In this document: in pieces, positions 5,642 to 64,000 of the stretch | Position numbering within the stretch: the first letter of the stretch is position 1 | Layout: every line of letters starts with the position of its first letter | Source: a virus | Lineage: Duplodnaviria; Caudoviricetes | IMG/VR virus record: IMGVR_UViG_3300005805_000068 | Location: 16,627-80,626 of that record | Length of the DNA stretch: 64,000 bases | Reading direction: 5' to 3' (one strand) | The notes under the pieces: model-generated | Told to the model about the DNA's origin: nothing | The model's database searches: none | Seen by the model: only the letters and a program-made list of their open reading frames with translations | Translations under genes and position numbers: made by a program

Positions 5642-5656
5642 TCAGGGGCAAGATAA

Positions 5657-9730: not shown

Positions 9731-9749
9731 TGGCAGCTGGCTTAACGTA

Positions 9750-10460
9750 ATGATGGAACTTATCTTAATCACACTACTAATGATACACTTGACTATGGTG
9801 TCAGTTACACTGTACCTACATCGCAGTCAAAGTCACAAGGGGGTTGAGTTTCATCCTGTACTAGCACATCTTATGCGTTTTTGGTTATGGCTCACTACAG
9901 GTATGAATACCAAGCAATGGGTAGCTGTACATCGCAAACACCATCAAAATCCAGATGTAGAAGGTGATCCGCATAGCCCACATGTATTTGGACTACTAAC
10001 AGTAATAACCACTGGCATGAAGTTGTACAACACACCATGTCGATCAGCAGACTTTGTTATGAAGTATGGAGCTGGTACTCCTCGAGATTGGATTGAACGT
10101 CAACTATACACTCCGTATCCTGTACTAGGTATTTTCATAATGTTGGCTATCGATCTATTGTTATTTGGACCATGGGGATTACTAGTATGGGTAATCCAAA
10201 TCGTTTGGATTCCTGTGGCGGCAGGTAGTTTAATTAACGGACTAGGACATTGGTGGGGTTATCGCAACGGTGAAACTAAAGATTTTAGCCGCAATATTAG
10301 TCCAATTGGTATTATAGTTGCAGGAGAAGAACTACATAATAATCATCATTTAGATCCAGCGAGCCCAAAATTTAGCCGTAAGCCTTGGGAGTTTGACATA
10401 GCTTGGATGTATATACAGATATTAAGTACAGTAGGTTTGGCTAAACTTAGAACCGGATAA
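9750..10460 (+). CDS. Membrane fatty-acid (delta-9, DesA-type) desaturase
   Basis: Three His boxes (LHRSQSH, HRKHH, ELHNNHH) plus hydrophobic segments. Confidence 0.9.
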   Translation: MMELILITLLMIHLTMVSVTLYLHRSQSHKGVEFHPVLAHLMRFWLWLTTGMNTKQWVAVHRKHHQNPDVEGDPHSPHVFGLLTVITTGMKLYNTPCRSADFVMKYGAGTPRDWIERQLYTPYPVLGIFIMLAIDLLLFGPWGLLVWVIQIVWIPVAAGSLINGLGHWWGYRNGETKDFSRNISPIGIIVAGEELHNNHHLDPASPKFSRKPWEFDIAWMYIQILSTVGLAKLRTG

Positions 10461-10481
10461 ATATACAAAAGAGAGCGTATT

Positions 10482-11057
10482 ATGACCATACAAACAATCA
10501 ATATAGGTAATTTAGTCAACGACGGGCTAGGTGATGATCTACGCACCGCGTTCCAAAAGGTAAATGCTAATTTTAGCAGTCTTGCTGCGGAATTAACCGT
10601 AACAGTAGGTACTCCAACAGCTAGTGGTGTTAATATCTTTAAGGAAAAAATTGGGTCTGAATTAATTTTTAAATCACTAGTATCTGGTACTAAGATGCAG
10701 ATTGCAGACGCTGGTGACAGCGTTGTATTCAACAATCTATCTCCAGATGCCTTTACTAGATTTGATACTGATGCTGGAGTATTATTAGCCAGTATCAATC
10801 AAGAAATATCTTTACAAGGTATTGCAGCACCCGGATCTACTTCAAGTAGACCAGATATAGAAGTTACAGCGATAGGACAATTTTTAAATTTTAAAACGAT
10901 ATTACCTGTTAGTGATATTTTAGAAACAGCAGACTTTGGTCCTATCAACGGAGCATTTACAAACGCAGTACAATTTAATACAGCGACATCCAATGTAGAT
11001 TTTGGCACTGTTCTTTTACCTGGACGAATTGATCTAGACCTAGGTCCAATTGTCTAA
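10482..11057 (+). CDS. Baseplate/tail protein with gp9/gp10-like N-terminal motif
   Basis: INIGNLVNDGLGDDLRTAFQKVNANFSSL, paralogous to the N-terminus of 3317..5641. Confidence 0.65.
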   Translation: MTIQTINIGNLVNDGLGDDLRTAFQKVNANFSSLAAELTVTVGTPTASGVNIFKEKIGSELIFKSLVSGTKMQIADAGDSVVFNNLSPDAFTRFDTDAGVLLASINQEISLQGIAAPGSTSSRPDIEVTAIGQFLNFKTILPVSDILETADFGPINGAFTNAVQFNTATSNVDFGTVLLPGRIDLDLGPIV

Positions 11058-11078
11058 CGCATCTAAGGATCTATATAG

Positions 11079-25014: not shown

Positions 25015-25501
25015 TTTAGGTCCTCACGAAAGTCTTATACAAGTCAGTACTAACTGGGAGTTTGGTATTGATGGAGACGCTAAACAATTAGAAAAAGATC
25101 TAATTGAATTTATGTTGGCCAATAAAGGAATTGGTTTGGCTGCTAATCAGATCGGATTAACTAAACGTGTTTTTGTAATGGGAAGTAACAATATCGAAGG
25201 ATTTCCTGTACCTTTCGCTGTGTTTAATCCTGTAATAACAGAAGCCAGCACAGATTTAGTATTAGATGAGGAAGGATGTTTAAGTTATCCCGATTTATTT
25301 TTAAAAGTAAAAAGGCCAAACTGGATTATCGCACAGTATCAAGACAGCGAAGGTAATCTAAAAGAAATTAAAGCCGAAGGATATTTGGCCAAATGCTTTC
25401 AACACGAATATGATCATCTAAATGGTGTATGTTTTGTTGACAGAGTATCACAGATGAAGTTACAATTAGCTATGAAGAAAATAAGGAAAAAGAATAAATG
25501 A
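25004..25501 (+). CDS. def: Peptide deformylase
   Basis: GIGLAANQ, EGCLS and QHEYDHL (HExxH) motifs. Confidence 0.95.
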   Translation: MSFNLGPHESLIQVSTNWEFGIDGDAKQLEKDLIEFMLANKGIGLAANQIGLTKRVFVMGSNNIEGFPVPFAVFNPVITEASTDLVLDEEGCLSYPDLFLKVKRPNWIIAQYQDSEGNLKEIKAEGYLAKCFQHEYDHLNGVCFVDRVSQMKLQLAMKKIRKKNK

Positions 25502-29944: not shown

Positions 29945-30282
29945 TGAAGTTATTCGAACTGTTTAGTCCTATCGGAGCTCCTAAGGAAGCCGATCAAGAT
30001 ATTGATTGGATAGGTGACTTAAAATTTTATATCGACAATGATGAAAAAATGCTCAGCAATTATTTCTTTCCTGCTGTTAAGCGTCATCAAGAATACAAAG
30101 GCAATCCAAATGCCTATAAAATTTATATCAGACCTATTGAAAAATGTTTAGATAGTTATTGTCAACAATATGAAATCCAAGATCGAGAAGTAAAATTTCC
30201 TAAGGAACAGCTTATTGAATTGGCTAAGCAAATGGCTGAAGAACAAGAAAAGCACATAGACCACGGCGACTATGAGAATTAA
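29944..30282 (+). CDS. Hypothetical protein with MKLFELF N-terminus
   Basis: TAATG coupling gives a start at 29944. Confidence 0.6.
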   Translation: MKLFELFSPIGAPKEADQDIDWIGDLKFYIDNDEKMLSNYFFPAVKRHQEYKGNPNAYKIYIRPIEKCLDSYCQQYEIQDREVKFPKEQLIELAKQMAEEQEKHIDHGDYEN

Positions 30283-31366
30283 CGAACTATTTGAAGCAGA
30301 TTCGAAGCATGCCGCATTTTGTTTCGGCAGAATGAATCCTCCTACGGTTGGACATAAACAATTACTAAACACTGTTAAAAGTGTAGGTGGGGATCATTTC
30401 ATTTTTGTTAGCCAATCACAAGATCCTAAAAAAAATCCTTTAGATTATTCTACCAAAATTAAGTTTATGAAACTTATGTTTCCCGAACATGCTAAAAATA
30501 TTGTAGAAGATTCAAGTCTAAATACGGTTGTAAAAGTTGCTAGTTACGTGTATAATTTAGGTTATAGAAATGCAACCTTTGTAGCAGGGAGTGATAGATT
30601 AGATACTATGAAACAGCTACTTACGCAATACAATGGAGTAGAAGGCAAAGCACACGGTTTCTATCAGTTCGATGTACTTGATTTTAAGTCAAGCGGTGAT
30701 CGTGAAGACGGAGCGGAAGGAGTTGCTGGAGTTAGTGCGAGCAACGCTCGAGTTGCCGCAGCTAATAATGATTTAGAAGCATTTAAAGAATCAACAGGTG
30801 CTGGACAGTATGCAGAACCACTGTTCAAAGCAGTTCGTCAAGGTATGGGAATACAAGAAGGACTAGAAGAAGGAAAATTTAGAAGTAGAGATGTTGAAGA
30901 ACGATTGATACCTAATAAAAAATTAAATGATCTAAAAAGTAAATATCTTCCCGATTGGGAAATGTTGGATCACAGAATTCTACAGGCAAAGTATGTTGCT
31001 AAGGATCATAGACATGCCGAGGAATTGGTTTCTTACATAAACAAAATCAGTGAAGAAATGGATCATTTTGCTGAAGTTACCCAAGATGTTGCAGAAGTAA
31101 CTGTTAAGACTTCAACCTTTGATGTTAAAGGTTTAACTGTGTTAGATTTTAAACTAGCATTAAAAGTTGACAAATATGCAGAGTCTAACGATATCGAACA
31201 GGTAAGAATGCAAGGTAATTTTGGTATGCACGAAGGCAAGAAAGATGCCTGCTATAACAAAGTTAAAAGTCGTGTCAAAGTATGGCCTTCAGCTTATGCC
31301 AGCGGACAGTTAGTGCAATGTCGCAAACGCGGTGCTGCCAATTGGGGAACAGGTAAGAAAAAATGA
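30272..31366 (+). CDS. Fusion of an HxGH nucleotidyltransferase-like domain, a pterin-4a-carbinolamine dehydratase-like domain and a basic Cys module
   Basis: FGRMNPPTVGH; W...LQAKY..KD......INKISEEMDHFAEV....VTVKTSTFDVKGLTVLDFKLA; DACY.KVKSR.KVWPSAYASG.LVQCRK. Confidence 0.65.
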   Translation: MRINELFEADSKHAAFCFGRMNPPTVGHKQLLNTVKSVGGDHFIFVSQSQDPKKNPLDYSTKIKFMKLMFPEHAKNIVEDSSLNTVVKVASYVYNLGYRNATFVAGSDRLDTMKQLLTQYNGVEGKAHGFYQFDVLDFKSSGDREDGAEGVAGVSASNARVAAANNDLEAFKESTGAGQYAEPLFKAVRQGMGIQEGLEEGKFRSRDVEERLIPNKKLNDLKSKYLPDWEMLDHRILQAKYVAKDHRHAEELVSYINKISEEMDHFAEVTQDVAEVTVKTSTFDVKGLTVLDFKLALKVDKYAESNDIEQVRMQGNFGMHEGKKDACYNKVKSRVKVWPSAYASGQLVQCRKRGAANWGTGKKK

Positions 31367-35554: not shown

Positions 35555-38224
35555 ATGAGTTACGTAGATGCTTTCTATGATAGAGAGCAAGATATCATTC
35601 GCATCGTTGAACGTGATGAAAATGGTCAACGACATTTCAAAGAATATGCACCAAGGCATATCTTCTACTTTGCAGATCCAAAAGGTAAACATCAGAGTAT
35701 TAAAGGAGAACCTCTTACTCGTGTAACCTGTAAAAACATCAAAGAATTACGCAAAGAACTTGCTATTCATAATAACAAAAAACTTTATGAAAGCGATATC
35801 AATCCAATCTATCGTTGTTTAGAAGATAACTATCTTAATGTTGATGCTCCAAAATTAAATATAGCGTTCTTCGACATTGAGGTTGACTTTGACCCAGACC
35901 GTGGGTATGCAAGTCCAGATGATGCGTTCATGCCAATTACTGCTATTGCAGTACATCTACAATGGTTGGATACTTTAGTTTGTCTAGCACTTCCACCTAA
36001 AACATTAAGTATGGAAGAAGCGCAACGTCAAGTTGAAGAATTTCCTAATACCTTACTCTTCGAAAGCGAAGCAGACATGCTTGATACCTTTCTTAATTTA
36101 ATCGAAGATGCTGATGTGTTAAGTGGTTGGAACTCAGAAGGCTTTGATATTCCATATACCGTTAATCGTGTGACCAAGGTGCTGTCAAAAGAAGACACAC
36201 GCAGATTTTGCTTATGGAATCAATATCCTAAAAAACGTGAATATGAAAAATACGGTAAGATGTCAGTAACATATGACTTTATCGGACGTGTTCATATGGA
36301 TAGTTTAGAATTATATCGAAAATATACCTATGAAGAAAGACATACCTATCGATTAGATGCTATTGCTGAATACGAATTAGGTAAAACTAAAACACAATAT
36401 GAAGGCACCCTAGATCAATTATACAACAATGACTTTAAAAAGTTTATCGAATATAATAGAAATGACACAATGCTTCTTGACAATTTAGATAAGAAACTTA
36501 AATTCTTAGATCTTGCTAATACAATCGCGCATGAAAATACAGTTTTACTTCAAACTACAATGGGTGCAGTAGCAGTTACTGAACAAGCTATTATCAATGA
36601 AGCACATCGCAGAGGTATGATTGTTCCTAATCGTTTAAGAATGGATGATCGAGGTGATACACAGGCTGCTGGTGCGTATGTTGCCTACCCTAAAAAAGGC
36701 ATTCACGAATGGATCGGCTCACTGGATATTAATTCACTGTATCCATCTGCAATTCGTGCATTAAATATGGGTCCAGAAACTATCGTTGGACAGTTACGTC
36801 AAGATGGTACTAAAGATTATATCGCTGCGGAAATAGGCAAGGGGAAATCATTCGCTAGTGCCTGGGAAGGTATGTTTGGCAGTGTTGAATACTTATCTGT
36901 AATGAATAAAGAAGTAGGCAGAGAAATTACCATCGATTGGGAAGGCGGAGGCGAAGATACTCTTAGTGCGTCACAAGTTTATGATCTAATATTCGAAAGC
37001 GGTCAACCTTGGATGCTTTCAGCTAACGGTACTATCTTTACTTATGAAACAGAGGGTATTATTCCAGGATTACTCAAACGTTGGTATGCTGAACGTAAAG
37101 ACATGCAGGCCAAACTAAAAGAATGTATCAAGAATGGTAATAAGATTGAAGAAGAATACTGGGACAAGCGACAGCTAGTTAAGAAGATTAACCTAAATAG
37201 TTTGTATGGTGCTATTCTTAATGCAGGATGTCGTTTCTTTGATAATCGTATCGGTCAGTCTACTACGCTTACTGGGCGACAAGTAGTTAAACACATGGCT
37301 GCAAAAATCAATGAGATCATCACAGGCGAGTATGATTATGTAGGTAAAGCAGTTATTTACGGTGACACTGACTCATGTTATTTTTCAGCATATTCTACTC
37401 TACGCAAAGAAATCGAATCGGGAAATATTCCATGGAATAGGGAAAGTGTTGTTGAATTGTACGATACTATCGCCGAAGAAGTTAACGGAACGTTTGTTAA
37501 ATTCATGGGTGATGCGTTTCACTGTCCTAAAACACGCGGAGAAGTTATTAAAGGTGGACGTGAGATCGTAGCAAGTAAAGGATTATTCATTACTAAAAAA
37601 CGTTATGCCGTATTATATTATGACAAAGAAGGCAAACGTTCAGATACAGATGGTAAGCCTGGAAAGATAAAGGCTATGGGGCTTGACCTAAAACGTTCAG
37701 ATACACCTGTGGTTATTCAAGATTTCTTAAGCGAAGTGTTGACCAAAGTGCTAAATGGAGCACCAAAAGAAGAAGTTTTAGACTATATCACTGATTTTAG
37801 AACAGAGTTTAAAACAAGACCTGGTTGGGAAAAAGGCAGTCCTAAACGTGCCAATAATATTTCAGAATATCGTGAAAAAGAAAAGAAAGCAGGTAAAACT
37901 AACATGCCCGGACACGTTCGTGCTAGTTTAAATTGGAATACTCTAAAACGTATGTATGAAGACAAATATTCGATGAATATTGTTGACGGTGCGAAAGTAA
38001 TTGTATGTAAACTTAAAGATAATCCGATGGCATATACCTCGGTGGCATATCCTGTAGATGAATTACGTTTACCACAATGGTTCAAAGACTTACCATTCGA
38101 CGATGCTGAAATGGAAAGTACCGTTATTGATGAAAAGTTAGGGAACTTAATTGGTGTTCTAGAATGGGATATCAGTTCAACACGCAGTGATAACAATTTT
38201 AACAAATTATTTGATTTTGAATAA
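35555..38224 (+). CDS. polB: Family B DNA polymerase (T4 gp43-like) with 3'-5' exonuclease
   Basis: FFDIEV, GWNSEGFD, SLDINSLYPS, KKINLNSLYG, YGDTDS and KKRYA motifs. No intein or intron interruption evident. Confidence 0.97.
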   Translation: MSYVDAFYDREQDIIRIVERDENGQRHFKEYAPRHIFYFADPKGKHQSIKGEPLTRVTCKNIKELRKELAIHNNKKLYESDINPIYRCLEDNYLNVDAPKLNIAFFDIEVDFDPDRGYASPDDAFMPITAIAVHLQWLDTLVCLALPPKTLSMEEAQRQVEEFPNTLLFESEADMLDTFLNLIEDADVLSGWNSEGFDIPYTVNRVTKVLSKEDTRRFCLWNQYPKKREYEKYGKMSVTYDFIGRVHMDSLELYRKYTYEERHTYRLDAIAEYELGKTKTQYEGTLDQLYNNDFKKFIEYNRNDTMLLDNLDKKLKFLDLANTIAHENTVLLQTTMGAVAVTEQAIINEAHRRGMIVPNRLRMDDRGDTQAAGAYVAYPKKGIHEWIGSLDINSLYPSAIRALNMGPETIVGQLRQDGTKDYIAAEIGKGKSFASAWEGMFGSVEYLSVMNKEVGREITIDWEGGGEDTLSASQVYDLIFESGQPWMLSANGTIFTYETEGIIPGLLKRWYAERKDMQAKLKECIKNGNKIEEEYWDKRQLVKKINLNSLYGAILNAGCRFFDNRIGQSTTLTGRQVVKHMAAKINEIITGEYDYVGKAVIYGDTDSCYFSAYSTLRKEIESGNIPWNRESVVELYDTIAEEVNGTFVKFMGDAFHCPKTRGEVIKGGREIVASKGLFITKKRYAVLYYDKEGKRSDTDGKPGKIKAMGLDLKRSDTPVVIQDFLSEVLTKVLNGAPKEEVLDYITDFRTEFKTRPGWEKGSPKRANNISEYREKEKKAGKTNMPGHVRASLNWNTLKRMYEDKYSMNIVDGAKVIVCKLKDNPMAYTSVAYPVDELRLPQWFKDLPFDDAEMESTVIDEKLGNLIGVLEWDISSTRSDNNFNKLFDFE

Positions 38225-46939: not shown

Positions 46940-47785
46940 ATGAGCAAAATTAAAATAGCAGAATTATTTTATAGCATACAAGGCGAAGGACGTTACATGG
47001 GTGTACCGTCTGTTTTCTTACGTACATTTGGCTGTAACTTTAAGTGTGCTGGCTTTGGTATGCCAAAAGGAGTATTAAGTGAAGAATACCTCACAGTGGA
47101 TCCAGAAAATTATACTGAATATGGAGGACTTCCTCTCGTTAGTACAGGGTGTGATAGTTATGCTAGTTGGGATCCTCGCTTTAAGCATCTTAGTCCCCTT
47201 ATGGATACTAGTGCTATTGCTGAAAAAATCGTTGAAACTCTTCCGTATAAAGAATGGAGAGACGAGCATCTAGTTATCACAGGCGGTGAGCCATTATTAG
47301 GATGGCAACGTGCTTACCCGGAATTATTGATGCATGATAAAATGCGATCATTAAAAGAACTTACGTTCGAAACAAACGGTACTCAGGAAATAAGCAAAGA
47401 ATTTAAAACTTGGTTACGTGACTATTGGATTGAAAATAAAGGGTATCAAAGTTTAACATTTAGCGTTAGTGCTAAATTGAGTGTTAGTGGAGAGCCTGCT
47501 AGTGAAGCAATACGTCCAGATATCGTGTGTTCATATCAAGAGCTTGGTCATACGTATCTTAAGTTTGTTATTGCCACTGAAGACGATGCTGAAGAAGCAT
47601 TAGAAGCGGTTGATATATATAGAGCAGAAGGATTTGATGGACATGTTTATCTAATGCCAGTGGGAGGTATTGAGAGCGTTTATACATTAAACAATAAACG
47701 TGTAGCAGAGCTAGCAATGAAAATGGGCTTGCGTTATAGCGATAGACTACAAGTACCGTTATTTAAAAACGCATGGGGAACATAA
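46940..47785 (+). CDS. queE: 7-carboxy-7-deazaguanine synthase (radical SAM)
   Basis: ELFYSIQGEG...FLRTFGCNFKC...CDS.ASW, VITGGEPLL, ETNGT and RLQVPL motifs. Confidence 0.92.
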   Translation: MSKIKIAELFYSIQGEGRYMGVPSVFLRTFGCNFKCAGFGMPKGVLSEEYLTVDPENYTEYGGLPLVSTGCDSYASWDPRFKHLSPLMDTSAIAEKIVETLPYKEWRDEHLVITGGEPLLGWQRAYPELLMHDKMRSLKELTFETNGTQEISKEFKTWLRDYWIENKGYQSLTFSVSAKLSVSGEPASEAIRPDIVCSYQELGHTYLKFVIATEDDAEEALEAVDIYRAEGFDGHVYLMPVGGIESVYTLNNKRVAELAMKMGLRYSDRLQVPLFKNAWGT

Positions 47786-51605: not shown

Positions 51606-51903
51606 TCCACTGTTTAAACCGCCAAGACATCTTGTTAAAGAATGGCCAGAAGTTTTTGAAGATTTGTACATGAATACTATGCCGGTAGCATACCTAGAGT
51701 TTGTTCATCTAGAATTTGCTAACGGCAGGGTATGGCAAATTGATATCAAAGAACAACTAACCCATTCAGATCCTGATGCTGTGGCAACTAAGTTATTAGA
51801 TACCATGAGCGAGTATAAAGACGAAATTAAAAAGTTGGATTTTAAAGTAGATATTGAGAAACTTAAAAAAGATATCTTAGATTCTACAAAAGAAATACTT
51901 TAA
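51598..51903 (+). CDS. Hypothetical protein
   Basis: GTG start, 101 aa. Its end converges with the minus-strand cassette. Confidence 0.6.
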   Translation: MPNPLFKPPRHLVKEWPEVFEDLYMNTMPVAYLEFVHLEFANGRVWQIDIKEQLTHSDPDAVATKLLDTMSEYKDEIKKLDFKVDIEKLKKDILDSTKEIL

Positions 51904-52691
51904 CTGATATTTCTGGCAATTAGTCTTGCCATATCTTTAGCGTTTTTTCTTCCGGGATGGATTAAATCTCGAGCTTGATTATCGATTTGTAACCAATCTG
52001 AATCAGTATAATAAGCAGACCTATCAAAAAAACTTGCAGAATAATACCTGCATCTAGATTTCCATAGATTCTTATTGGCCATGCTAATAAATTTAGCTCT
52101 TAACATTGAATGAGTGTCATTCTTGATGTATTCAGTGAAATAGGGATGTTCTTCCCAAATTCCACAATTTTTTATTTCAGTATTGTCAAAATAGGTACAT
52201 CTGTCTGTACCTGTCCATAAATCTATAACAGCATATGGTGTAGGATAATATTCTGATAAAATAATCGAATTGTAAAAACTAAAATCAAAAGATACTCCAG
52301 GGCCTCCTAAATTTACCACAGGACGATCCATCAACAAACTTAGTTGATGTGATATAGTCTCATCTTCAGCTAATCCAATTCCTAACACATTAGAGCATCC
52401 AAGGATAACTACTGCTTCTTTCCAATCAATATTTTTCCATTCTGGTGAACGATACCCATTAGAATTAATTTTATATTCTATTTCTTTGGTACGATAATGC
52501 CAATCATCTGGTTGAGTTTTTAAATTTTTTTCAAAAGTTTCTGGAGAGTCGGTTCCGGAAAATCTATGATCAAATTCATTGGTTTCTCTGTTCACCGGGT
52601 GATTCAATAGCACCACCGGAAGAAAATTAGGAGGATTAAAATATACAGGTTCCGGTATAACATTAACTAAGTTTTCTAAACTGTTAGTCAT
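51900..52691 (-). CDS. SGNH-like hydrolase or acyltransferase
   Basis: ILGCSNVLG, NLGGPGVS and ARDLIHPG. Confidence 0.6.
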   Translation of the reverse strand: MTNSLENLVNVIPEPVYFNPPNFLPVVLLNHPVNRETNEFDHRFSGTDSPETFEKNLKTQPDDWHYRTKEIEYKINSNGYRSPEWKNIDWKEAVVILGCSNVLGIGLAEDETISHQLSLLMDRPVVNLGGPGVSFDFSFYNSIILSEYYPTPYAVIDLWTGTDRCTYFDNTEIKNCGIWEEHPYFTEYIKNDTHSMLRAKFISMANKNLWKSRCRYYSASFFDRSAYYTDSDWLQIDNQARDLIHPGRKNAKDMARLIARNIS

Positions 52692-53559
52692 TGATATATC
52701 CTTTAAGTTTACAAAATTCGTAAATTTCTTCCGCCATTATTCCATATCCTGTTTGGGTAGGGTGCATACAATTAGTAATATATTCTGTAGGATATTTTAA
52801 CTTACTATAATATTCATAAAAATTTCCGTTTGACAATTCAGGATGTCCGTCATAATTTAATAATAATTCCATAAAACTTTTACAGCCTTTCGGATACAAA
52901 AATTTATCCCAAGGCATCGATTCTATTAAATTAGCGTGTTCTGATCCTAGATGCTCATAAAAATATTCTTTATGTACTCGTTGGTCAAATGCGCAAGAAA
53001 CTATAAAATCAAATCCATGAGCCTTGGCGAACATTTCACCTTCTCTAATATTCATCAATGTTTCAATTAGTATAAATTTTTCACTCCAGAGATCTTTAGC
53101 GTATGCTTCCCATAGTTGTTTATTTGTGCTTTTCTCATCTTGAGGATTAGGCCACATGGTATAGAAATGATGATCTAGATATTCTTTATTAATAAAGTCG
53201 AATCGTTCTATTCCACTTAACATCAGTATCATTATACCGCCAGAGGCGTTATCTAATTTAAGAGCAGGGTTCAAGTATAATTCTTTAACAGCAGCTCGAT
53301 TTCCTTTACCTGTGATACCAAGATTAATAGGGATATAATCCGGTAAATGATTACGACTTAATTGACATGGCCAACTATTGTAGTACATTTCATCGTATAG
53401 ATCTTTAGGAACTTTCAGTGGATCAATAAATCCATCATACTTATTATAGGTAGACTTCGACCAACTGCCAACACCTTCGGTAAAACTATCACCGAGTCCA
53501 ATTATGATCTTAGAACCTTTAGGTATATCAGGATTTCTATATTTTGGCATTCTTATCAT
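52684..53559 (-). CDS. SGNH-like hydrolase or acyltransferase
   Basis: GLGDSFTEG, NLGITGKGN and CMHPT..GY. Confidence 0.65.
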   Translation of the reverse strand: MIRMPKYRNPDIPKGSKIIIGLGDSFTEGVGSWSKSTYNKYDGFIDPLKVPKDLYDEMYYNSWPCQLSRNHLPDYIPINLGITGKGNRAAVKELYLNPALKLDNASGGIMILMLSGIERFDFINKEYLDHHFYTMWPNPQDEKSTNKQLWEAYAKDLWSEKFILIETLMNIREGEMFAKAHGFDFIVSCAFDQRVHKEYFYEHLGSEHANLIESMPWDKFLYPKGCKSFMELLLNYDGHPELSNGNFYEYYSKLKYPTEYITNCMHPTQTGYGIMAEEIYEFCKLKGYIND

Positions 53560-54818
53560 AAATTAAAATATTCTTTGTAATGATTTTTTAATTCAATACA
53601 AGCAGGATTTTCTCTTTTAGAATTTCTTTGGAATGTATTATAGTTATGTATCAGAATGTCTTTCATCGATTCATACCAAGCAAATTTATTCTGTATAGAT
53701 TGTACTTGCTTAATAGATTCGATTATCGCTTCAAATCTTTCAAAGGTAGGTAATTCATCATAGGATTCGTCTATAAATCCTTCAAACGTTCTGTACCCCA
53801 TTTCACGTAATTTTTTTAAACTTCCTTTATTACCCACTACAATAAAAGGATGTAGGCACGCTATAGGTTTAAAAACTTTTTCACTTAAAAATAAAGTATG
53901 ATCTTGATCACCAAAACTTGCTTCAGATACTACCGAAATCCAACTGTCTAAACACACAGTATCTAATATTCTTCTAATATAAAAATTGTCATTGTGTTCT
54001 ATGTTAGATTTTCCATGAACTAATAATGGCAGTATTTTATTGGCATTTTCAGAAATTAATTGGCTTGGAACACGACCTTCAAAATATGTTTGAGTATATT
54101 CATATGGATTCATACTCACCAAACCTTGATCTAATAAATTTGCTTCATAAAGATATATGTAGAACCAGATTCTATGTGCCCTGAGTCTTTTTTGAAGGCA
54201 ATTATATGTTTTAATCTTGTCTACATTTTCTTTTTTATATTGAATATGTTTTTCAACTGTAATATCTAATTTCATTTCTTTTGATATAAAATGAACATCT
54301 TCTTCAAAATGTGCATAGGGCAATACATTCATTCTTTCAGAAATATTGTGTTCGTTGGCCCAATTTGTATATTGTTCTTTACAGAGAAGATTTCCTGTAA
54401 TGTATATTATTGCTCTAGGATTAATATTATAGTCTTTACATTCTGTGTGAAAATATTCCCACAACCAAGTTGTCTGATATCCTTCAAGGCTTTGATCTAA
54501 TAACAACATCGCACGACCTTCTCTAAGATCTGTTAGGTATTGATCATTTAGATAAGAGAACCCATTTTTAACTTCATTTCGAAATGCTAAAGATGTTCCT
54601 GCCCAATTGTCTGGATGGTGGTTTACACCTGAACAGATCATATAATGAGATGGAAGATTCTGTATAGTCATTGCCTTATTTTCTTGACCTCTAGGCCCAT
54701 ATACCATTAATTGTGTTATTGGTGAGGTCGCAAATCTTTTTATACCAGAGCGATTAACATCGGGGCAATTTGTAAAATTTTCTAAATTTTCTAAATTTTC
54801 AAATACAAAATTAATCAC
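53556..54818 (-). CDS. Putative glycosyltransferase-like protein
   Basis: C-terminal WISVVSE...LSEKVFKPI...PFIVVG..GSL..LREMGY.TF, reminiscent of GT10/GT47-type nucleotide-sugar binding ends (weak). Confidence 0.45.
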   Translation of the reverse strand: MINFVFENLENLENFTNCPDVNRSGIKRFATSPITQLMVYGPRGQENKAMTIQNLPSHYMICSGVNHHPDNWAGTSLAFRNEVKNGFSYLNDQYLTDLREGRAMLLLDQSLEGYQTTWLWEYFHTECKDYNINPRAIIYITGNLLCKEQYTNWANEHNISERMNVLPYAHFEEDVHFISKEMKLDITVEKHIQYKKENVDKIKTYNCLQKRLRAHRIWFYIYLYEANLLDQGLVSMNPYEYTQTYFEGRVPSQLISENANKILPLLVHGKSNIEHNDNFYIRRILDTVCLDSWISVVSEASFGDQDHTLFLSEKVFKPIACLHPFIVVGNKGSLKKLREMGYRTFEGFIDESYDELPTFERFEAIIESIKQVQSIQNKFAWYESMKDILIHNYNTFQRNSKRENPACIELKNHYKEYFNL

Positions 54819-55828
54819 ATTAATCTATCTCGCCAAGTTCTTGGAGTTTTTTCGTTTATGATTTCTAAAGGAAACCCATAATCAAATGGTTTTGGTCCGC
54901 GTTTTCGTATCCAATCTGCTGTGGTCTTTATCGCTGTTCTCACATCTGTTTTTGTATCATATCCTAATATTTTGCGAGCTTTATCAGCAGAACACATTGC
55001 ATCTTTTACTTCTCTCGGTCTTTCAGGAAAATGTATAGGAGGTTCAGTAAATTTACATTCTTCTGCTACCATGGCAACTAATTCATTAATCGTAATAGTA
55101 CCTTCATCCGGTCCAATGTTTATTGTTTCGCTAATAATAGATGGGTCTAATGCTAATTTTTCTAAACAAAAAACACAATCGTCTACATAACTAAAACATC
55201 GAGTTTGTTCTCCATCTCCATAAACGATCGCAGGCTTACCTTGTAAGTTACGATTAATCATGATACTCATTACATTACGAAACGGATCATCATATCTCTG
55301 GCGGGGTCCGACGATATTATGTGGTACAGCAATATTCCATTCCATACCGTGAGTTTCACAAAGTGATTTAAGCACTTCTTCGCCAGCTACTTTAGCTATA
55401 CCATAAGGGTCAACGGGTTTAGGTATTTGAGATTCACGGAATGGTGTACCTTGAGCTCCATATCGAGCCATGCTAGAACAATATACAAATCTCTTTACAT
55501 TGCATGCTATGGAGGCGCTTATAGTGCTTACAGATGCCTGGAATATGTTCTTAGTAATAAAGTTAGGACTAAACACGCTAAGACCTTCGTGTGCAGTCGC
55601 AGCGGTATGTATTACGATGTCTACCCCTTTCATTTTTTCGCATAGCATGTCGTATTCACAGCAATCGATGGTATATAATTCTGCTTTAGGATTTACATTA
55701 TCTAAATAGCCTCCGATGAGAGTATCATTACCCACAACTTCGTGCCCGAGTTCTATCATTCTATCTGCTAAATGGCTTCCTAAGAATCCTGCAATTCCTG
55801 TGATAAAAATTTTCATATGTTCATACAC
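54815..55828 (-). CDS. NAD-dependent nucleotide-sugar epimerase/dehydratase
   Basis: GIAGFLGS, SSMARYG, YGIAK (YxxxK) and GDGEQTRCFSYVDD motifs. Confidence 0.92.
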   Translation of the reverse strand: MYEHMKIFITGIAGFLGSHLADRMIELGHEVVGNDTLIGGYLDNVNPKAELYTIDCCEYDMLCEKMKGVDIVIHTAATAHEGLSVFSPNFITKNIFQASVSTISASIACNVKRFVYCSSMARYGAQGTPFRESQIPKPVDPYGIAKVAGEEVLKSLCETHGMEWNIAVPHNIVGPRQRYDDPFRNVMSIMINRNLQGKPAIVYGDGEQTRCFSYVDDCVFCLEKLALDPSIISETINIGPDEGTITINELVAMVAEECKFTEPPIHFPERPREVKDAMCSADKARKILGYDTKTDVRTAIKTTADWIRKRGPKPFDYGFPLEIINEKTPRTWRDRLM

Positions 55829-57177
55829 CTAAAATAAAATGTCGATAATTCAGGGAATGTTTCAACAAAATTTGTGCCTCGTCTATGATCATATTCTGTA
55901 AACCAATTATAGAAATCTCTCCAACCTTCTAATAATTTGTCATCGGAATATTTTGAAGTTTCCATATACTTAACTACACGTAGAAATTTTTCATATTCAA
56001 GTTCTGAAAATTTACTGCGATTTTTATCATCGAGATTGGTCTTGATGTATTCTAGATGTTTATACATATACGGCATGAAATCTTCTTTAGGTAATAAATT
56101 CATATCATATTGTAAAGGTTCTTTTAAGAAAGGAGTATCAAATCTAATACGTTGCCATTTATTCTGTTCAAATCCATTATATTTCTCACGCCATTCTAAT
56201 ATTTTTTCTAGCAGTGACTGAAAATTAGTCACTGTTAAAATATTAAATGTTATCATAAATGTGATAGGTAATTGTGTCTTGGTTAGATAAGTGTCTAGAT
56301 TACGTTCCCATACTTCTAAATCTAATCCAGTACGGATGTATTCAGCAGGTTTACCCCAAGTATCAATACTGGTAAAAATTTTAAAATCTTTGATACAACC
56401 TTTTGATAGTAGATTGTTTACCTTTTCTACAAGACGATCTATCATCACGGGTTTCACACCGAAGTTACTATTGATATTCAATTCAAGTTGTGGTTGGGGA
56501 TTTTTTTCTAATTCATCAAATAATCGCCAGGTGCTTTGTTGTAACAAAGGTTCTCCACCTGTGATACGCAAGATAGTTAGTGTCTTGCTAACTTCCGGCC
56601 ACCATTTCCACCATGCTTCAACATAGGGATTAGTTTCTTCTTCGTATATAGTAAACCAATCGATGTCATTCCGATGATTTTTAACCATAGAGTAAGGACC
56701 GTGATCTTTAATCTCTTTGTAGTATGCTGAACTATGTTTAGGATGGCAGTACCCGCATTTAAAATTACATTCATTACCGAAACTAATCTCAATGTACTGC
56801 GGGTTTATGTGCTTTAAAGGATTATGTTTTATTTCAGCAAGCCTTTCTTCGGTATAGATACTAGCATTGCGTTCTTTACGATCGCTGATGTAATCCTCAC
56901 CCATGGCTTCGATGTTCCAGCAATAATTACATCCACTCGGCTTACCGCCTGATAGCATTTCAGCACGTTCTGATATTTTTTGTCTAGTGTTGTGAAGAGC
57001 GTCTACTTTGTGTGCAAGTTCTTGTAACGGAATCTTATGCGGAGCAGGATGGTAACAACTATGTGTTTCTCCTGTACCTAAGTAGATGGTCGTGTGATGC
57101 CACTTCGCTAAACAAAATGTCGGCGAAACCTCATTCATTATAGGAATGAATTTTTGTATGCGAGCTTTATCGTCCAA
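55813..57177 (-). CDS. Radical SAM protein with N-terminal auxiliary Cys cluster
   Basis: CNFKCGYC and ITGGEPLL. N-terminal FCLAKW...SCYH...CNYCW (SPASM/twitch-like). Confidence 0.85.
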   Translation of the reverse strand: MDDKARIQKFIPIMNEVSPTFCLAKWHHTTIYLGTGETHSCYHPAPHKIPLQELAHKVDALHNTRQKISERAEMLSGGKPSGCNYCWNIEAMGEDYISDRKERNASIYTEERLAEIKHNPLKHINPQYIEISFGNECNFKCGYCHPKHSSAYYKEIKDHGPYSMVKNHRNDIDWFTIYEEETNPYVEAWWKWWPEVSKTLTILRITGGEPLLQQSTWRLFDELEKNPQPQLELNINSNFGVKPVMIDRLVEKVNNLLSKGCIKDFKIFTSIDTWGKPAEYIRTGLDLEVWERNLDTYLTKTQLPITFMITFNILTVTNFQSLLEKILEWREKYNGFEQNKWQRIRFDTPFLKEPLQYDMNLLPKEDFMPYMYKHLEYIKTNLDDKNRSKFSELEYEKFLRVVKYMETSKYSDDKLLEGWRDFYNWFTEYDHRRGTNFVETFPELSTFYFRCMNI

Positions 57178-57844
57178 ATCGTTCTCTCAACCAATCAAAA
57201 TCATTGATCATTTTTAATGCTTCATTGTTGTCTTTATTTTCTAATCCGTATTGTTTTCCTTGCACAGCACCTTCAATAGCTTCTCTACCAAAAGGTCGAT
57301 CAAGTCCTCTAGTACACCAAACATTTAATCTATAGTTTGTGTCAGCATCATCCTGTCGATCGATAGTCTTACTGGCTAGCTTTACACATTCTCTAAAAGC
57401 ACTTTTCCATGTGTTAAACGGATCTACATTGAAAGCTGTAACGTTACTAACCTCTGGCATTGCTTTGAATAGCGTTGAGATACTAGTGGTCATATCTGGC
57501 TTAGAAATATCCATATTTTGTGTCAATCGTTTAGGCAATAACTTTACACCGCCGTACCCATATTCTAAATCGTTAATAGGATTGCGACTGCGCCATACGT
57601 GTACATTTTCTAAATCATAGTCGCTAACTACATGATCAAAATTAAAAGTATCTAATATATGAGCATCTGCATCAACTACCCAGAACATTTTTGTAAATGC
57701 TTTTTTAGCAGCAGCGATGTGAGCCTGATGTATACCTTTAATACCATCGACTCTCTGAGCATAAGGAAATCTAGATTTAAGTTTAGAAAAATTCTCATCT
57801 GCCTGAGGTTCATTATAGCTGATGAATATAATATCGTATCTCAT
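57167..57844 (-). CDS. GT-A-like protein (paralog A)
   Basis: IFISYNEP.AD and FWVVDADA (DxD). Confidence 0.6.
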   Translation of the reverse strand: MRYDIIFISYNEPQADENFSKLKSRFPYAQRVDGIKGIHQAHIAAAKKAFTKMFWVVDADAHILDTFNFDHVVSDYDLENVHVWRSRNPINDLEYGYGGVKLLPKRLTQNMDISKPDMTTSISTLFKAMPEVSNVTAFNVDPFNTWKSAFRECVKLASKTIDRQDDADTNYRLNVWCTRGLDRPFGREAIEGAVQGKQYGLENKDNNEALKMINDFDWLRERFGR

Positions 57845-58722
57845 CGTTTATAGTATGTCCTTACTAATTCGATAGTTTCATCATATAAGTCTAAAGTAAA
57901 CTTACTCTGTTGTTCATCTAAATATGGCCAATCTAATCCTAGATTTATTTTTATTTTTTCTCCTAATTCTCGAATATCACGTTCTACATTTTTATGATCA
58001 ATATTTTGTTCGTACATGTTTCTTAGGATTTCAAAATCTCTAACATCAATATAATTCCAATCGGTACAGTTAGTCATCCAGGTTCCCATTCGAGCTCCAA
58101 GAATAGAATATGCTCCATACTCTTCGTGTGAACCCACAGTTGACCACATACGCAATCTATGGATATTGTGCCACCAGATACGTTCTTTGATTTCCATCGG
58201 TGGAACTTTAACTCCGTCAAGCAAAGTCATCTTAACTCCTTCACGGAATCCTGCACGCCAGGCTTGGAAAGGACTGCCGTTAATTATACTATCACTATAA
58301 ACTGTAGGAAAATTACGGTATCCATCTTCCCAACAGAAATCTACTTGAGCTCGATCGCTTTCGCTAGCTTCATGGGTTCTCATATTAACTACAAAATCTT
58401 TTTTCCAGATTTTTAATCCGCCATTACCATAACGTAATCCATTAATTTTATTTCTTCCACACCATCCATAAACCTGTATCTTTGGATCTGTCATATCTAG
58501 ATCCAAATCAAAAAAACTTGGATGTACTATGTTATCTGCATCAACAGTAATAAACCATTCAGTATCAGATAATGCTGCGGCCGCTTTATGTGCTGCATCT
58601 GATCCTTTAACTCCATGAACACGTTTTGCCCACGGTGCTTTGTTACATAGATCAGCGTAATGTAAATCTGCGTTGGGTTCATCATAACTGATGAATACTA
58701 TATCAAATTCTACTATTTTCAT
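57841..58722 (-). CDS. GT-A-like protein (paralog B)
   Basis: VFISYDEPNAD, FITVDADN and AWRAGFREGVK. Clearly paralogous to 57167..57844. Confidence 0.6.
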   Translation of the reverse strand: MKIVEFDIVFISYDEPNADLHYADLCNKAPWAKRVHGVKGSDAAHKAAAALSDTEWFITVDADNIVHPSFFDLDLDMTDPKIQVYGWCGRNKINGLRYGNGGLKIWKKDFVVNMRTHEASESDRAQVDFCWEDGYRNFPTVYSDSIINGSPFQAWRAGFREGVKMTLLDGVKVPPMEIKERIWWHNIHRLRMWSTVGSHEEYGAYSILGARMGTWMTNCTDWNYIDVRDFEILRNMYEQNIDHKNVERDIRELGEKIKINLGLDWPYLDEQQSKFTLDLYDETIELVRTYYKR

Positions 58723-59348
58723 TTAATTTCTACAGCGTAATTTTTAAAAATTCTCTTGGTATAGATGCTAAATCTTTCCGGGAGATCGATATCATAAAAT
58801 ACTTTCGAAACATCTACAAGATCAGACACGTGCAATTTAAGAATCTTATGTAATATATTAGGATCATTGTAATCTGTAATATAAAGATCCATAGCGGTAT
58901 CACCGTTCCAGTGTATACGTTTTTTCTTATTTGGAGTAGTACCATCAGTTACTTCCATAAACTGATTAAAATCATCTATAAGATTAACTGTTAATGTTTT
59001 TTCAGATCGGTTATACACTATATAGATATCATGCTTGTCAGATGTTGAATATTCTATACCAATTATTCGATGGAGTATGTCAGATATCTTGAATATAGAT
59101 CTAACCTCTGCTATTTCAACTGTGCGCGAATCGAGATCCACGTAACAATGATGTAATGGTATTTTTCCCTGAAGTATTTTTTCGGCGACTTCTTGATCTA
59201 TAGAAGCTTTATGGAATTCATTAATCAGTGCTCTAGCAGGTCCAACCTTAGTTACGCTTCCTGTTTGAGGATCAAATGCCGCGGCATATTCAACTTCTGG
59301 TGGTTTATATTCAGCTAACCATTTTTCAACATCCATTATTTCTTCCAT
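58719..59348 (-). CDS. Hypothetical protein
   Basis: 209 aa within the cassette. Confidence 0.65.
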   Translation of the reverse strand: MEEIMDVEKWLAEYKPPEVEYAAAFDPQTGSVTKVGPARALINEFHKASIDQEVAEKILQGKIPLHHCYVDLDSRTVEIAEVRSIFKISDILHRIIGIEYSTSDKHDIYIVYNRSEKTLTVNLIDDFNQFMEVTDGTTPNKKKRIHWNGDTAMDLYITDYNDPNILHKILKLHVSDLVDVSKVFYDIDLPERFSIYTKRIFKNYAVEIK

Positions 59349-60175
59349 GCGATTTCCTCTAGAATGTTGACTATTTCAGTATTAATTTTGTCTTTTTCAA
59401 CATAATGCACGATATCGTGTTGTTGATAATTTCCTATTTTTAATTTTGCTTCACGATTAAAATAAAAACCAACATTGTCTGACCACTTGTTGCTGGCCCA
59501 CGGCCAATTTTGTACCATAGGTTTCATATGAACTACTCTTGGAAATTCTAAAGGATATGCAATATCATTTTCTATTCCTAATATTTTTGCCGATAGCGCA
59601 AACGCTTCGTCTGTTCCAACTATTTTAGGTCTATAGTCAGACAAAAACATATTTGAAAATTCTATAGGATTCTTAATAATATATCGACCTAGTGTAAAAA
59701 ATTCTTCAGCTAATTTACTATCTTTCTTAAAAAAAGTCCAGAATGAATATAAATTAGGTAATTCATTTTCTGTAAATGTTTTTCTATATTCGTCGCTGGT
59801 AACTACCTCACTACGATATGTATAAGATTTATTAGCTACATATAATTCTGAGTTTTCTATAAAATAGTCAATCCAATGACTATAATCTCTGGTAAACAAC
59901 ATATCAGAATCTAAACATACTGTATGATCAAAAGGAGTTAATTTATCCATCCATGATCGACCATTCCAAAATGTTTCTTGATCCCAAGATATCACATGAT
60001 CAAATACCCACTTAGATGTGTACCCTTCAATTTGTGATGGATCGTCTATAACCAAGGCAATCTTGTCATACCCTTCTTTCTGAGTATTTTTAATGCTTAA
60101 TGCAAGAGCGTAAGCTAGTTGAGCATAGTCAACTTTTTCGTCTTTGGCTACAAAAATCAAATATCCAAAATTCAT
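59336..60175 (-). CDS. GT-A (GT8/GT6-like) glycosyltransferase
   Basis: TPFDHTVCLDSDMLF (DxD), D.AFALSA and VHMK. Confidence 0.65.
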   Translation of the reverse strand: MNFGYLIFVAKDEKVDYAQLAYALALSIKNTQKEGYDKIALVIDDPSQIEGYTSKWVFDHVISWDQETFWNGRSWMDKLTPFDHTVCLDSDMLFTRDYSHWIDYFIENSELYVANKSYTYRSEVVTSDEYRKTFTENELPNLYSFWTFFKKDSKLAEEFFTLGRYIIKNPIEFSNMFLSDYRPKIVGTDEAFALSAKILGIENDIAYPLEFPRVVHMKPMVQNWPWASNKWSDNVGFYFNREAKLKIGNYQQHDIVHYVEKDKINTEIVNILEEIAWKK

Positions 60176-61035
60176 ATCAGTCTCATTAATGAGTCAGCAT
60201 TTCTTATCATGCTGTGTTTGTTCATTACGTGTACATCCAATCCATCAACAGCAGCCGCACAAAAATTAGAATCAACCATAGGACTAATTAAGAATATTAA
60301 TTTACCTTTATCACTGACTTGATACAAAGAATCTTTATCCATAGTTGTTAAAATAGGAGGAAGAGAAAATTTTAAATCAGTTTCGAACCCATCCATGATA
60401 TGTTTAGCGACACTGAATGATATATCATTTCTATACTGTCTGGTACTAAATCTAAATAGATCTCCGAAGTATTGATAATTATCTCTGACATAATTCACAA
60501 GATCAAAAAACGTTTTAGTTGTTTCATTTTTATTAAACATAACTGTAGTAGCCCACATAAGATGAACGCCAGTATCTGAAACATACTTGTCAAGATATCC
60601 AATCCTATTTTGAGAATAGATGTCTTTAATAGAGTCTGATATCATGATATCTTGATCAATATCCCAATATTGATTTAATCTATCTGAAAATACTAAAAAA
60701 TCACTGTCTAATAATAGTGTTCGATCGTAAGGAGTAATTTCACAAGCATTAGCCCTATTGGCATTTACAAACGGAACCATTTTACTTTGTGTTCCATCAT
60801 GTAATTTTCTTTGATTACCGGTAAGAGGTTTTTCTATTTCGATGATCTGATCAAATATATCAATCGCTTTTTCATAGGTTCCTGATGTTTTCATCCACTC
60901 AATTGTAGACATGTCTGTGGCCAAACTAACAGGAACTTTTAAATTCTTTTTAACCAACCCGCCGGATATAATTGCCATTAGAGCATAATCAATATCTCTA
61001 CTGTTATGAGCAAATATTAATGCACCTTTTTTCAT
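60172..61035 (-). CDS. GT-A (GT8/GT6-like) glycosyltransferase, paralog
   Basis: TPYDRTLLLDSDFL (DxD), RND.SFSVA and HVMNK. Confidence 0.65.
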   Translation of the reverse strand: MKKGALIFAHNSRDIDYALMAIISGGLVKKNLKVPVSLATDMSTIEWMKTSGTYEKAIDIFDQIIEIEKPLTGNQRKLHDGTQSKMVPFVNANRANACEITPYDRTLLLDSDFLVFSDRLNQYWDIDQDIMISDSIKDIYSQNRIGYLDKYVSDTGVHLMWATTVMFNKNETTKTFFDLVNYVRDNYQYFGDLFRFSTRQYRNDISFSVAKHIMDGFETDLKFSLPPILTTMDKDSLYQVSDKGKLIFLISPMVDSNFCAAAVDGLDVHVMNKHSMIRNADSLMRLI

Positions 61036-61382
61036 AGATCTAATAATTTTTCCACACTTCTATTTCTTTTAAGAGCTTCATATTGTTCATAATATTCTAG
61101 GGTAGTGGTAAAATATCTATCTATGATCTCATCTCGGAATTCTGTAAGATCATCGATCATCACAGGGTTTTCATTCATATCGATTAGTGGAATGCCGTTG
61201 ATACGGCCTTGATCTATTAAAATTTGGACGAAAGATATGAGCTCTCTATCAATTTTAAAAATGCCGCCATTAAATCCATAGACTAGTTTGGATTCAATTT
61301 TTTCTTTTAAAGTTCTTCTTTGAATAGAAAAAGTATGGCGATAATTAGAAAATTCTAGAGCTTTTTTGAACTGCTCATCCAT
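61032..61382 (-). CDS. Hypothetical protein (first gene of the cassette)
   Basis: AGGAG SD. TATAAATA on the minus strand at 61412-61419. Confidence 0.7.
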   Translation of the reverse strand: MDEQFKKALEFSNYRHTFSIQRRTLKEKIESKLVYGFNGGIFKIDRELISFVQILIDQGRINGIPLIDMNENPVMIDDLTEFRDEIIDRYFTTTLEYYEQYEALKRNRSVEKLLDL

Positions 61383-61450
61383 ATTGTACTCCTAAAATAA
61401 ACATAGCAGTTTATTTATAGTACTTAGATGAACCTAAGAAAATTTAAGAA

Positions 61451-64000
<2,550 letters not shown>

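Follow-up and report, generated by a model that had tools for sequence, protein, structure and literature searches.

A conserved operon of putative glycan-building and tailoring enzymes adjoins a tail-associated protein family in large phages

Gene content and organization of the operon

The window analysed here is a 64,000 nt stretch of DNA (positions 16,627 to 80,626) forming the last 64 kb of the 80.6-kb linear IMG/VR viral record IMGVR_UViG_3300005805_000068 (Duplodnaviria; Caudoviricetes). CheckV completeness was 23 % for this record and 53 % for a 186-kb relative, so the phage genome appears to be about 350 kb, i.e. larger than those of pelagimyophages. A convergent minus-strand block at the end of the record contains an operon of 11 co-directional open reading frames (ORFs), running from 61382 down to 51900 (9,483 bp), and lies downstream of a fibre-like ORF on the same strand whose C-terminal domain is here called A4. 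All ten gene junctions within the operon overlap, by 4-14 nt, leaving no intergenic gaps, and the G+C content (0.32-0.35) resembles that of the remaining phage DNA. A first-pass annotation, made from the letters of the window, had described ten overlapping minus-strand genes over 9.5 kb; the overlap and the length were confirmed, and the count was corrected to 11. The products, in order, are 116, 287, 279, 209, 293, 225, 454, 337, 420, 291 and 263 amino acids (aa) in length, and taken together their predicted functions support a soluble glycan-building and tailoring set. The features of the locus, all on the minus strand, are as follows; names beginning Rso denote ORFs of the Ralstonia jumbo phage RsoM2USA, which carries a related gene set.

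61451..63189, minus strand: Ser/Thr/Gly-rich fibre-like ORF, 5'-truncated, with the frame open up to a junction in the record
61451-62401, minus strand: A4 domain, the C-terminal ~310 aa of this ORF, modelled as an N-terminal three-helix bundle followed by a beta-sandwich
61412-61419, minus strand: TATAAATA, T4-type late-promoter-like box, exact match, 29 nt 5' of the first ATG
61032..61382, minus strand: 116-aa core protein, with homologues in 66 close relatives and throughout the divergent modules (Rso_354 among them)
60172..61035, minus strand: 287-aa weakly GT8-like protein, paralog a, DxD residues D110/D112 invariant
59336..60175, minus strand: 279-aa weakly GT8-like protein, paralog b, a paralog of the 287-aa protein
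58719..59348, minus strand: 209-aa core protein, the most divergent core member (33-93 % identity among relatives)
57841..58722, minus strand: 293-aa putative GT-A-fold (GT2-like) transferase with a helical C-terminal domain, D61-x-D63 invariant
57167..57844, minus strand: 225-aa putative GT-A-fold paralog of the 293-aa protein, DxD common to both
55813..57177, minus strand: 454-aa radical S-adenosylmethionine (SAM) enzyme with an N-terminal auxiliary 4-Cys (twitch) domain, N_Twi_rSAM family (NF033640)
54815..55828, minus strand: 337-aa NDP-sugar 4-epimerase-like enzyme of the short-chain dehydrogenase/reductase (SDR) family, Pfam Epimerase at 150 bits against a threshold of 20.9
53556..54818, minus strand: 420-aa protein, possibly GT10 (fucosyltransferase)-like, from a very large family as yet uncharacterised
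52684..53559, minus strand: 291-aa SGNH/GDSL-like protein, Pfam GDSL at 18.1 bits (E 0.003), below the cut-off of 23.6
51900..52691, minus strand: 263-aa protein with SGNH-like motifs (GCS ... DxxH), assigned from motifs only

The late-promoter motif that had been proposed for the operon was recovered at the position listed above. Exact copies of TATAAATA and of the shorter ATAAATA are scarce in the window (two against 9.3 expected, and 12 against 33 expected, respectively), and most of them lie within ~55 nt 5' of gene starts (e.g. 10457, 20629, 33954, 49972 and 50705), a depletion consistent with selection against stray late promoters. The TAAATA core was present upstream of the homologous first gene in 67 of 67 related loci, with nearly all copies lying at -31 to -39. 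As this core has been kept whilst the intergenic sequence flanking it diverges among the 67 relatives, the box is likely to be a functional late-type promoter, from which late expression of the operon would follow. Sigma-70-like promoters and terminators showed no excess over chance within the operon.

A 19-residue hydropathy scan revealed no transmembrane-like segment in any of the 11 products (maximum over any 19-mer, Kyte-Doolittle 1.41), and all are predicted to be soluble. The absence of flippase- or polymerase-type membrane proteins, already remarked upon in the first-pass annotation, is therefore upheld. Since none of the 11 proteins has a transmembrane segment, the operon lacks the membrane components by which O-antigen and serotype-conversion systems are recognised (flippase, polymerase, Gtr-type protein or polyprenyl-phosphate transferase).

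Proteins of the conserved core

No match to the 116-aa protein was found in Pfam, PHROG or NCBIfam, nor any match to PqqD/RRE. The 287- and 279-aa proteins had been described as GT8/6-like paralogs. Their paralogy is clear (22 % identity, E 2e-5), and each is 35 % identical to its counterpart in RsoM2USA (Rso_353 and Rso_352, respectively), whilst the likeness to glycosyltransferase family 8 is weak: Pfam GT8 (PF01501) gave 16 bits on the 287-aa protein (E 0.0096), short of the gathering threshold of 24.3, and a weak match of this kind was seen in just two of the 32 GT8-like family members scanned. Searched against the PDB, the family profile retrieved glycogenins alone (E 0.02-0.3). D110 and D112, invariant in both paralog groups, fall inside this alignment, which reaches the glycogenin DxD region; H269 and K273, also invariant in the pair and candidates for the C-terminal His/Lys motif of GT8, lie beyond the aligned stretch. 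Comparison of the GT8-like profile with that of the 293/225-aa pair by hhalign was non-significant. A hidden Markov model (HMM) of the 209-aa protein weakly matched Rso_351 (E 1.5e-7) and the same-position genes of divergent modules.

The description of the 293- and 225-aa products as two further DxD-containing, GT-A-like paralogs was borne out. They are 33 % identical (E 1e-30), Rso_348 is 45 % identical to the 225-aa protein, and D61 and D63, which follow the fourth strand, are invariant across both paralog groups. Profile searches included, no sequence match to the pair was obtained in Pfam, NCBIfam, PHROG or the PDB. When the 293-aa protein was modelled with AlphaFold (AF2; pLDDT 86.8), its N-terminal part formed a GT-A domain that superposes on many GT-A (GT2-type) enzymes with similar scores (Z 10-10.8, rmsd ~3.2 Å, 138-143 residues). 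MobA and IspD, nucleotidyltransferases of the same superfold, score about as well and no family stands out, the top Foldseek match being PBCV-1 A64R (E 5.8e-5). The model thus points to GT-A glycosyltransferases at the level of fold.

The radical SAM assignment of the 454-aa protein is solid. It is a full-length member of the catalogued N_Twi_rSAM family, scoring 317.3 bits against NF033640 over model positions 1-398 (curated cut-off 170). The residues C137/C141/C144 (CX3CX2C), GGEP 207-210 and C22/C41/C83/C86 were invariant in 53 of 53 relatives, including paralogs near 22 % identity; as both Cys clusters and the GGEP motif are invariant, this is an intact two-cluster radical SAM enzyme. A PDB profile search with the radical SAM enzyme alone gave no match, and no publication on the chemistry of NF033640 members was found.

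Variable tailoring genes

The 337-aa protein, annotated from the outset as an NDP-sugar epimerase, is firmly identified as an NDP-sugar 4-epimerase/dehydratase-type SDR by its matches to Pfam Epimerase (8e-44), to the PHROG nucleotide-sugar epimerase family (7e-58) and, in the PDB, to the UDP-glucose 4-epimerase 4ZRM (best match, 2.5e-45). Its nearest solved relatives are UDP-glucose/UDP-hexose and UDP-glucuronate (UDP-GlcA) 4-epimerases, and the translation contains GIAGFLG (GxxGxxG) and YGIAK (YxxxK).

The 420-aa protein is a member of a very large family that lacks a Pfam model and counts at least 14,282 clusters at 50 % identity. One to five paralogs occur per relative, often tandem-duplicated or fused into proteins of 740-1090 aa. 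It had been called glycosyltransferase-like, an assignment that stands at the level of motifs and has no counterpart in sequence matches: neither the protein nor the family profile matched Pfam or PDB sequences (every family member was scanned against Pfam), and homologue searches yielded unnamed proteins only. The protein is possibly GT10-like, judging from a weak lead in the Atlas (score 0.79) and from E313-K314, invariant within a 'SEKxFKP' motif that resembles the 'TEK' motif of GT10. GT10 sequences were sought for a profile-profile comparison, and none was present in five genomes plus controls.

Two SGNH proteins had also been proposed. Residues of the expected kind (Ser, Gly, Asn and His) are invariant in both, namely S25, G81/84/86, N87 and H266 in the 291-aa family and S100, N127/G129, N141 and D242-x-x-H245 in the 263-aa family (six sequences), whilst family matches were limited to the sub-threshold GDSL match of the 291-aa protein. 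The 263-aa protein had no Pfam match and neither family profile matched the PDB, so that both are SGNH-like at the motif level.

Distribution and conservation of the module

The 293-aa gene was represented by >8000 metagenomic protein clusters at 90 % identity and by 515 IMG/VR loci. All 12 of the long IMG/VR loci contained one or two ~300-aa A4 proteins followed by homologues of the 116-, 287-, 279-, 209-, 293- and 225-aa proteins and the radical SAM enzyme. The order A4-116-GT8a-GT8b-209-GT-A(293) is kept from ~90 % down to 25-35 % identity, with the 225-aa and radical SAM genes next, in varying mutual order. After this core the relatives differ, and carry extra N_Twi paralogs, a B12-binding and a SPASM radical SAM, a 2-oxoglutarate (2OG) oxygenase, a GDP-mannose-dehydratase-like SDR, one to five copies of the 420-aa type and SGNH-like genes. 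The module can thus be divided into a core kept throughout, comprising A4, four GT-A-like genes and the radical SAM enzyme, and a downstream set of tailoring genes that is hypervariable. Tail-fibre genes lie upstream of the module in relatives.

The same core was found at 25-50 % identity on phage-like contigs of metagenome-assembled genomes (MAGs), and the A4 HMM placed A4 directly 5' of the 116-aa gene in 14 of 14 cases. Four such contigs, L099 and L107 (Haliscomenobacter MAG) and L088 and L127 (Neomarinimicrobiota MAG), are 150-335 kb in length and contain the whole module, with as many as eight N_Twi paralogs in tandem; binning of jumbo-phage contigs with bacteria is the probable explanation. 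Among the genomes checked, N_Twi members above the cut-off were found only in the two module-carrying MAGs, mostly on the module-bearing contigs; three further bacterial genomes and 14 controls had none.

When 50,697 phage records were searched for DNA nearly identical to the region, none matched. At the protein level, the core was present in one of these records, that of RsoM2USA (MG752970), where ORFs 355-348 have nearly the same order and 29-45 % identity and are all annotated as hypothetical. RsoM2USA has the core only, without the variable tailoring tail, and its cassette adjoins tail sheath/tube genes and virion proteins (PMC8504454) rather than fibre genes as in the present phage. The RsoM2USA relative XacN1, for which virion glycoproteins have been reported, was also considered; the cassette proteins found no match there, the presence of its record in the collection is unconfirmed, and its glycoproteins were not credited. 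Four core putative glycosyltransferase groups, which may correspond to genes of the module, are described in the 'moraphage' paper.

In true bacterial chromosomes the 293/225 family occurs mostly as a single gene adjoining GT1/GT4 glycosyltransferase genes. A bacterial-looking locus on a 494-kb contig of a Bdellovibrionia MAG (L142, 9980-13144) has a 293-like/225-like pair followed by a radical SAM gene with an N-terminal SPASM domain, with two further radical SAM genes on the opposite strand; it may represent a cellular counterpart of the enzyme core that lacks A4.

The A4 domain and the upstream fibre-like gene

The upstream ORF had been singled out as a Thr/Ser-rich structural gene. Its S+T content (26.4 %) is indeed the highest in the window, with the qualification that the gene is cut at 63189/63190: full-length homologues are 779 aa in length and begin with a glycine-rich domain, and about 200 N-terminal codons are missing here. 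DNA homology to phage relatives ends at 63189. From 63190 to 64000 the G+C content jumps to >60 %, and this segment holds a C-terminally cut P-II (GlnB-like) gene and the C-terminal ~195 aa of an ammonium transporter. Because the P-II gene and the fibre gene are both truncated at the join, it is most likely an assembly chimera, with the high-GC DNA from 63190 on foreign to the phage.

The AF2 model of the A4 domain (pLDDT 84.6) had no convincing solved relative, the best Z (6.9, the jelly-roll of the Csp protease) being within the range of noise. A4 gave no PDB match by family profile, and searches of BFVD and the Atlas returned three uncharacterised homologues and unnamed viral clusters only, respectively. 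The A4 HMM matched EST35_0123 of the Pseudomonas phage PA5oct (E 1.5e-35), which carries the GenBank note 'ESI-MS/MS' that marks the 93 virion-associated proteins of PA5oct. Its neighbours are also virion proteins: a gp10-like baseplate wedge/tail pin and a homologue of a 590-aa fibre protein that is found ahead of A4 in the relatives of the present phage. Because the PA5oct homologue was confirmed in the virion by mass spectrometry and adjoins the gp10-like baseplate wedge gene, the A4 family is, through this homologue, a tail or baseplate-associated virion protein. The idea of a soluble glycan-synthesis operon tied to a tail gene is thereby strengthened, the link to this virion protein family being conserved.

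PA5oct is without the enzyme cassette. RsoM2USA holds two A4 paralogs, ORF355 adjoining the cassette and ORF417 far away, and the copy that adjoins the enzymes appears to travel with the cassette. ORF417 (L174, 5968-6828) lies between two unannotated genes of 1257 and 1369 aa, which are probably tail genes. A4 has a Ser/Thr/Gly-rich surface loop, which is extended in the divergent copies linked to the cassette and missing in Rso_417. A role of this loop as an S/T-enriched acceptor site is not supported in close relatives, where its median S/T fraction is 0.21 against 0.24 in the remaining protein. The present analysis adds A4 as an always-adjacent member of the module, its virion status via PA5oct, the two paralogs in RsoM2USA and the chimeric end of the record.

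Decoration of the phage particle

The enzyme set (four GT-A-type genes, an NDP-sugar epimerase and a radical SAM enzyme) suggests glycan assembly and tailoring. The lack of membrane components, the late-type promoter, the strict co-inheritance with A4 and the retention of the core across unrelated hosts favour a phage-encoded acceptor, for which A4 is the best candidate, and conservation of the core in phages of Ralstonia and of marine and freshwater bacteria argues that this acceptor is constant and phage-encoded rather than host-specific. Further points in the same direction are the GT1/GT4 genes that adjoin bacterial homologues of the 293/225 family, and the position of glycosyltransferase genes directly 3' of the A4 fibre/baseplate gene in all relatives examined. 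From this evidence we infer the glycan product, its acceptor and its biological role: there is about an even chance that the virion is glycosylated, with the A4-domain baseplate/fibre protein as the most likely acceptor. In the first-pass annotation the glycan was further conjectured to be acylated, and its role would be to mask virion proteins or to alter adsorption. A fuller proposal, which we put forward more tentatively, is that of a widespread self-contained system in which a glycan on A4 is built in the cytoplasm by the four GT-A proteins and a phage-specific two-cluster radical SAM enzyme, and is diversified by fast-changing tailoring enzymes.

Under such a scheme, transcription starting at the TATAAATA late promoter, or reading through from the fibre genes, would yield a single translationally coupled message. 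The four GT-A-type transferases, two GT8-like (probably retaining) and two GT2-like, would add sugars from nucleotide-sugar donors, the SDR epimerase would provide a non-host sugar epimer, and the two-cluster radical SAM, 420-aa transferase-like and SGNH-like proteins would tailor the product. The modified A4-domain protein would then be assembled into the tail.

Several points weigh against glycosylation of A4. Direct evidence of a glycan on a virion protein has yet to come from any cassette-carrying phage, and no conserved Ser/Thr acceptor motif was found in A4. The GT8 likeness and the 420-aa and SGNH-like identities are weak. T4-type late promoters drive non-virion genes too. A4 is present without the cassette in PA5oct and as Rso_417, so it does not need the cassette. 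ORF355 was not among the ten abundant virion bands identified in RsoM2USA (PMC8504454), and comparable islands in marine T4-like phages have been published as modifiers of the host O-chain (PMC7029224).

The last of these points belongs to an explanation in which the transferases alter the O-antigen, lipopolysaccharide (LPS) or capsule of the host, thereby blocking superinfection or the binding of progeny to debris. GT8 members are often enzymes of LPS synthesis, hypervariability like that of O-antigen loci marks the downstream part of the operon, and for the hypervariable 'host recognition clusters' (HRCs) of pelagi- and cyanomyophages, which combine tail fibres, GT8-type enzymes and radical SAM enzymes, the authors favour O-chain modification (PMC7029224). 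Set against these similarities, the operon encodes no flippase, polymerase, ligase, polyprenyl-phosphate transferase or other membrane protein and has a late-type promoter, its core enzymes are common to phages of unrelated hosts with differing surface glycans, and it is strictly linked to the phage's own A4 protein. The host O-chain reading is weakened in the present case, and modification of the host envelope is judged unlikely. DNA glycosylation in this phage, of the kind known from T-even phages and others, is very unlikely: phage glycosyltransferases often target hydroxymethylated bases, and RsoM2USA has two thymidylate-synthase-family genes that could include a hydroxymethylase, but these lie >100 kb from the cassette, and no gene of this family was found on four marine contigs (80-186 kb; 23-53 % complete). 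The late-type promoter, the position of the operon among tail genes rather than replication genes and the linkage to a virion protein also speak for a target other than DNA.

Modification of A4 residues themselves by the radical SAM enzymes, in the manner of ribosomally synthesized and post-translationally modified peptides (RiPPs), with sugars forming only part of the decoration or none of it, would account for the SPASM and B12-binding radical SAM enzymes and 2OG-Fe(II) oxygenases added in the variable region of relatives, and for the presence of up to eight N_Twi paralogs per phage contig. The Bdellovibrionia GT-A pair, followed by the N-terminal-SPASM radical SAM gene and accompanied by more radical SAM genes, fits the same picture, and the 116-aa core protein could serve as a substrate-recognition adaptor. 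The NDP-sugar epimerase/dehydratase and the four to five transferase-like genes, on the other hand, indicate carbohydrate chemistry, the 116-aa protein is without a PqqD/RRE match and no leader-peptide-like substrate is present, making residue tailoring of this kind distinctly unlikely. A free sugar-derived small molecule or secreted glycoconjugate, e.g. aminoglycoside- or nucleoside-like, made off the virion is highly improbable. Twitch-type radical SAM enzymes such as BtrN do act in aminoglycoside pathways, and soluble enzymes and a variable tailoring set would suit such a product, but the window has no exporter, resistance gene, aminotransferase or cyclase core, PADLOC gave no defence or counter-defence family match and the conserved coupling to A4 would be left unexplained.

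Comparison with known systems

A close published parallel is the HRC described in pelagimyophages and cyanomyophages of the T4-like group (Zaragoza-Solas et al. 2020, PMC7029224), likewise a hypervariable island in the tail-fibre region of aquatic phages that holds GT8-type transferases, sugar-nucleotide enzymes and radical SAM cassettes. The downstream half of the present operon varies between relatives as the HRC does. The HRC is defined by its position between VrlC and gp14, and its description (PMC7029224) is a general one in which the eight-gene core, the A4 linkage, the N_Twi family and the late promoter are not defined. The present phage (~350 kb) also appears to be larger than pelagimyophages.

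Among viruses that glycosylate their own particles, the giant-virus glycan clusters and A64R of PBCV-1 offer the example of soluble GT-A enzymes, encoded by the virus, that modify a virion protein in the cytoplasm. The likeness of A64R to the 293-aa protein is at the generic GT-A level only (TM 0.25-0.38, with many GT2 enzymes tied at Z 10-10.8); there is no sequence-level relationship, and PBCV-1 belongs to another virus realm. In mycobacteriophages, Freeman et al. are said to have shown in 2023 that glycans are carried on the C-termini of capsid and tail-tube proteins. The likeness to those phages is one of gene placement, glycosyltransferase genes lying within or beside structural genes; in contrast to them, the present case consists of genes alone, with a baseplate/fibre protein as the candidate acceptor and with a radical SAM enzyme and a hypervariable tailoring set in addition.

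Glycosylated virions have been demonstrated in giant eukaryotic viruses and in a small number of actinobacteriophages; to our knowledge they have not been demonstrated in large phages whose hosts are Gram-negative or aquatic bacteria. The module is very common in metagenomes, is tied to the host-recognising part of the phage and includes a radical SAM family without known chemistry. Should its product reside on the fibres, the host-recognition apparatus of giant phages infecting Gram-negative/aquatic bacteria would carry a variable coat, 'O-antigen-like' in effect, and both host-range determination and phage antigenic variation would acquire a new layer. Several large 'hypothetical' families would gain a function and the reading of such islands as host-surface modifiers would be overturned. 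The question is directly testable, as the cultured phage RsoM2USA carries the core.

Other features of the window

The plus strand of the window encodes T4-type structural genes and replication genes, together with a 5'-3' exonuclease.

3317-13826, plus strand: gp9/gp10-like baseplate and tail-fibre proteins (T4-type genes)
25498-27846, plus strand: ATP-dependent (Lon-like) protease, 782 aa, matched full-length by phrog_4871 (E 2e-249)
35555-38224, plus strand: family B DNA polymerase

A second, small radical SAM protein (281 aa; 46940-47785, plus strand), with weak Radical_SAM and Fer4_12 matches, is encoded among the replication genes, adjoining the 5'-3' exonuclease gene, and could be an NrdG- or QueE-like activase. 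A 364-aa cytidylyltransferase with an additional C-terminal domain (30272-31366, plus strand; PHROG 2e-48) could provide a sugar or polyol in activated form and perhaps contribute to the glycan pathway. At 91-1605 on the plus strand, a 504-aa protein (phrog_6427/22593) has a C-terminal domain in common with the 590-aa fibre protein mentioned above, which lies before A4 in relatives, and the same domain is found in PA5oct EST35_0124. As the 504- and 590-aa proteins share this C-terminal domain, two fibre clusters in the phage use one common domain.

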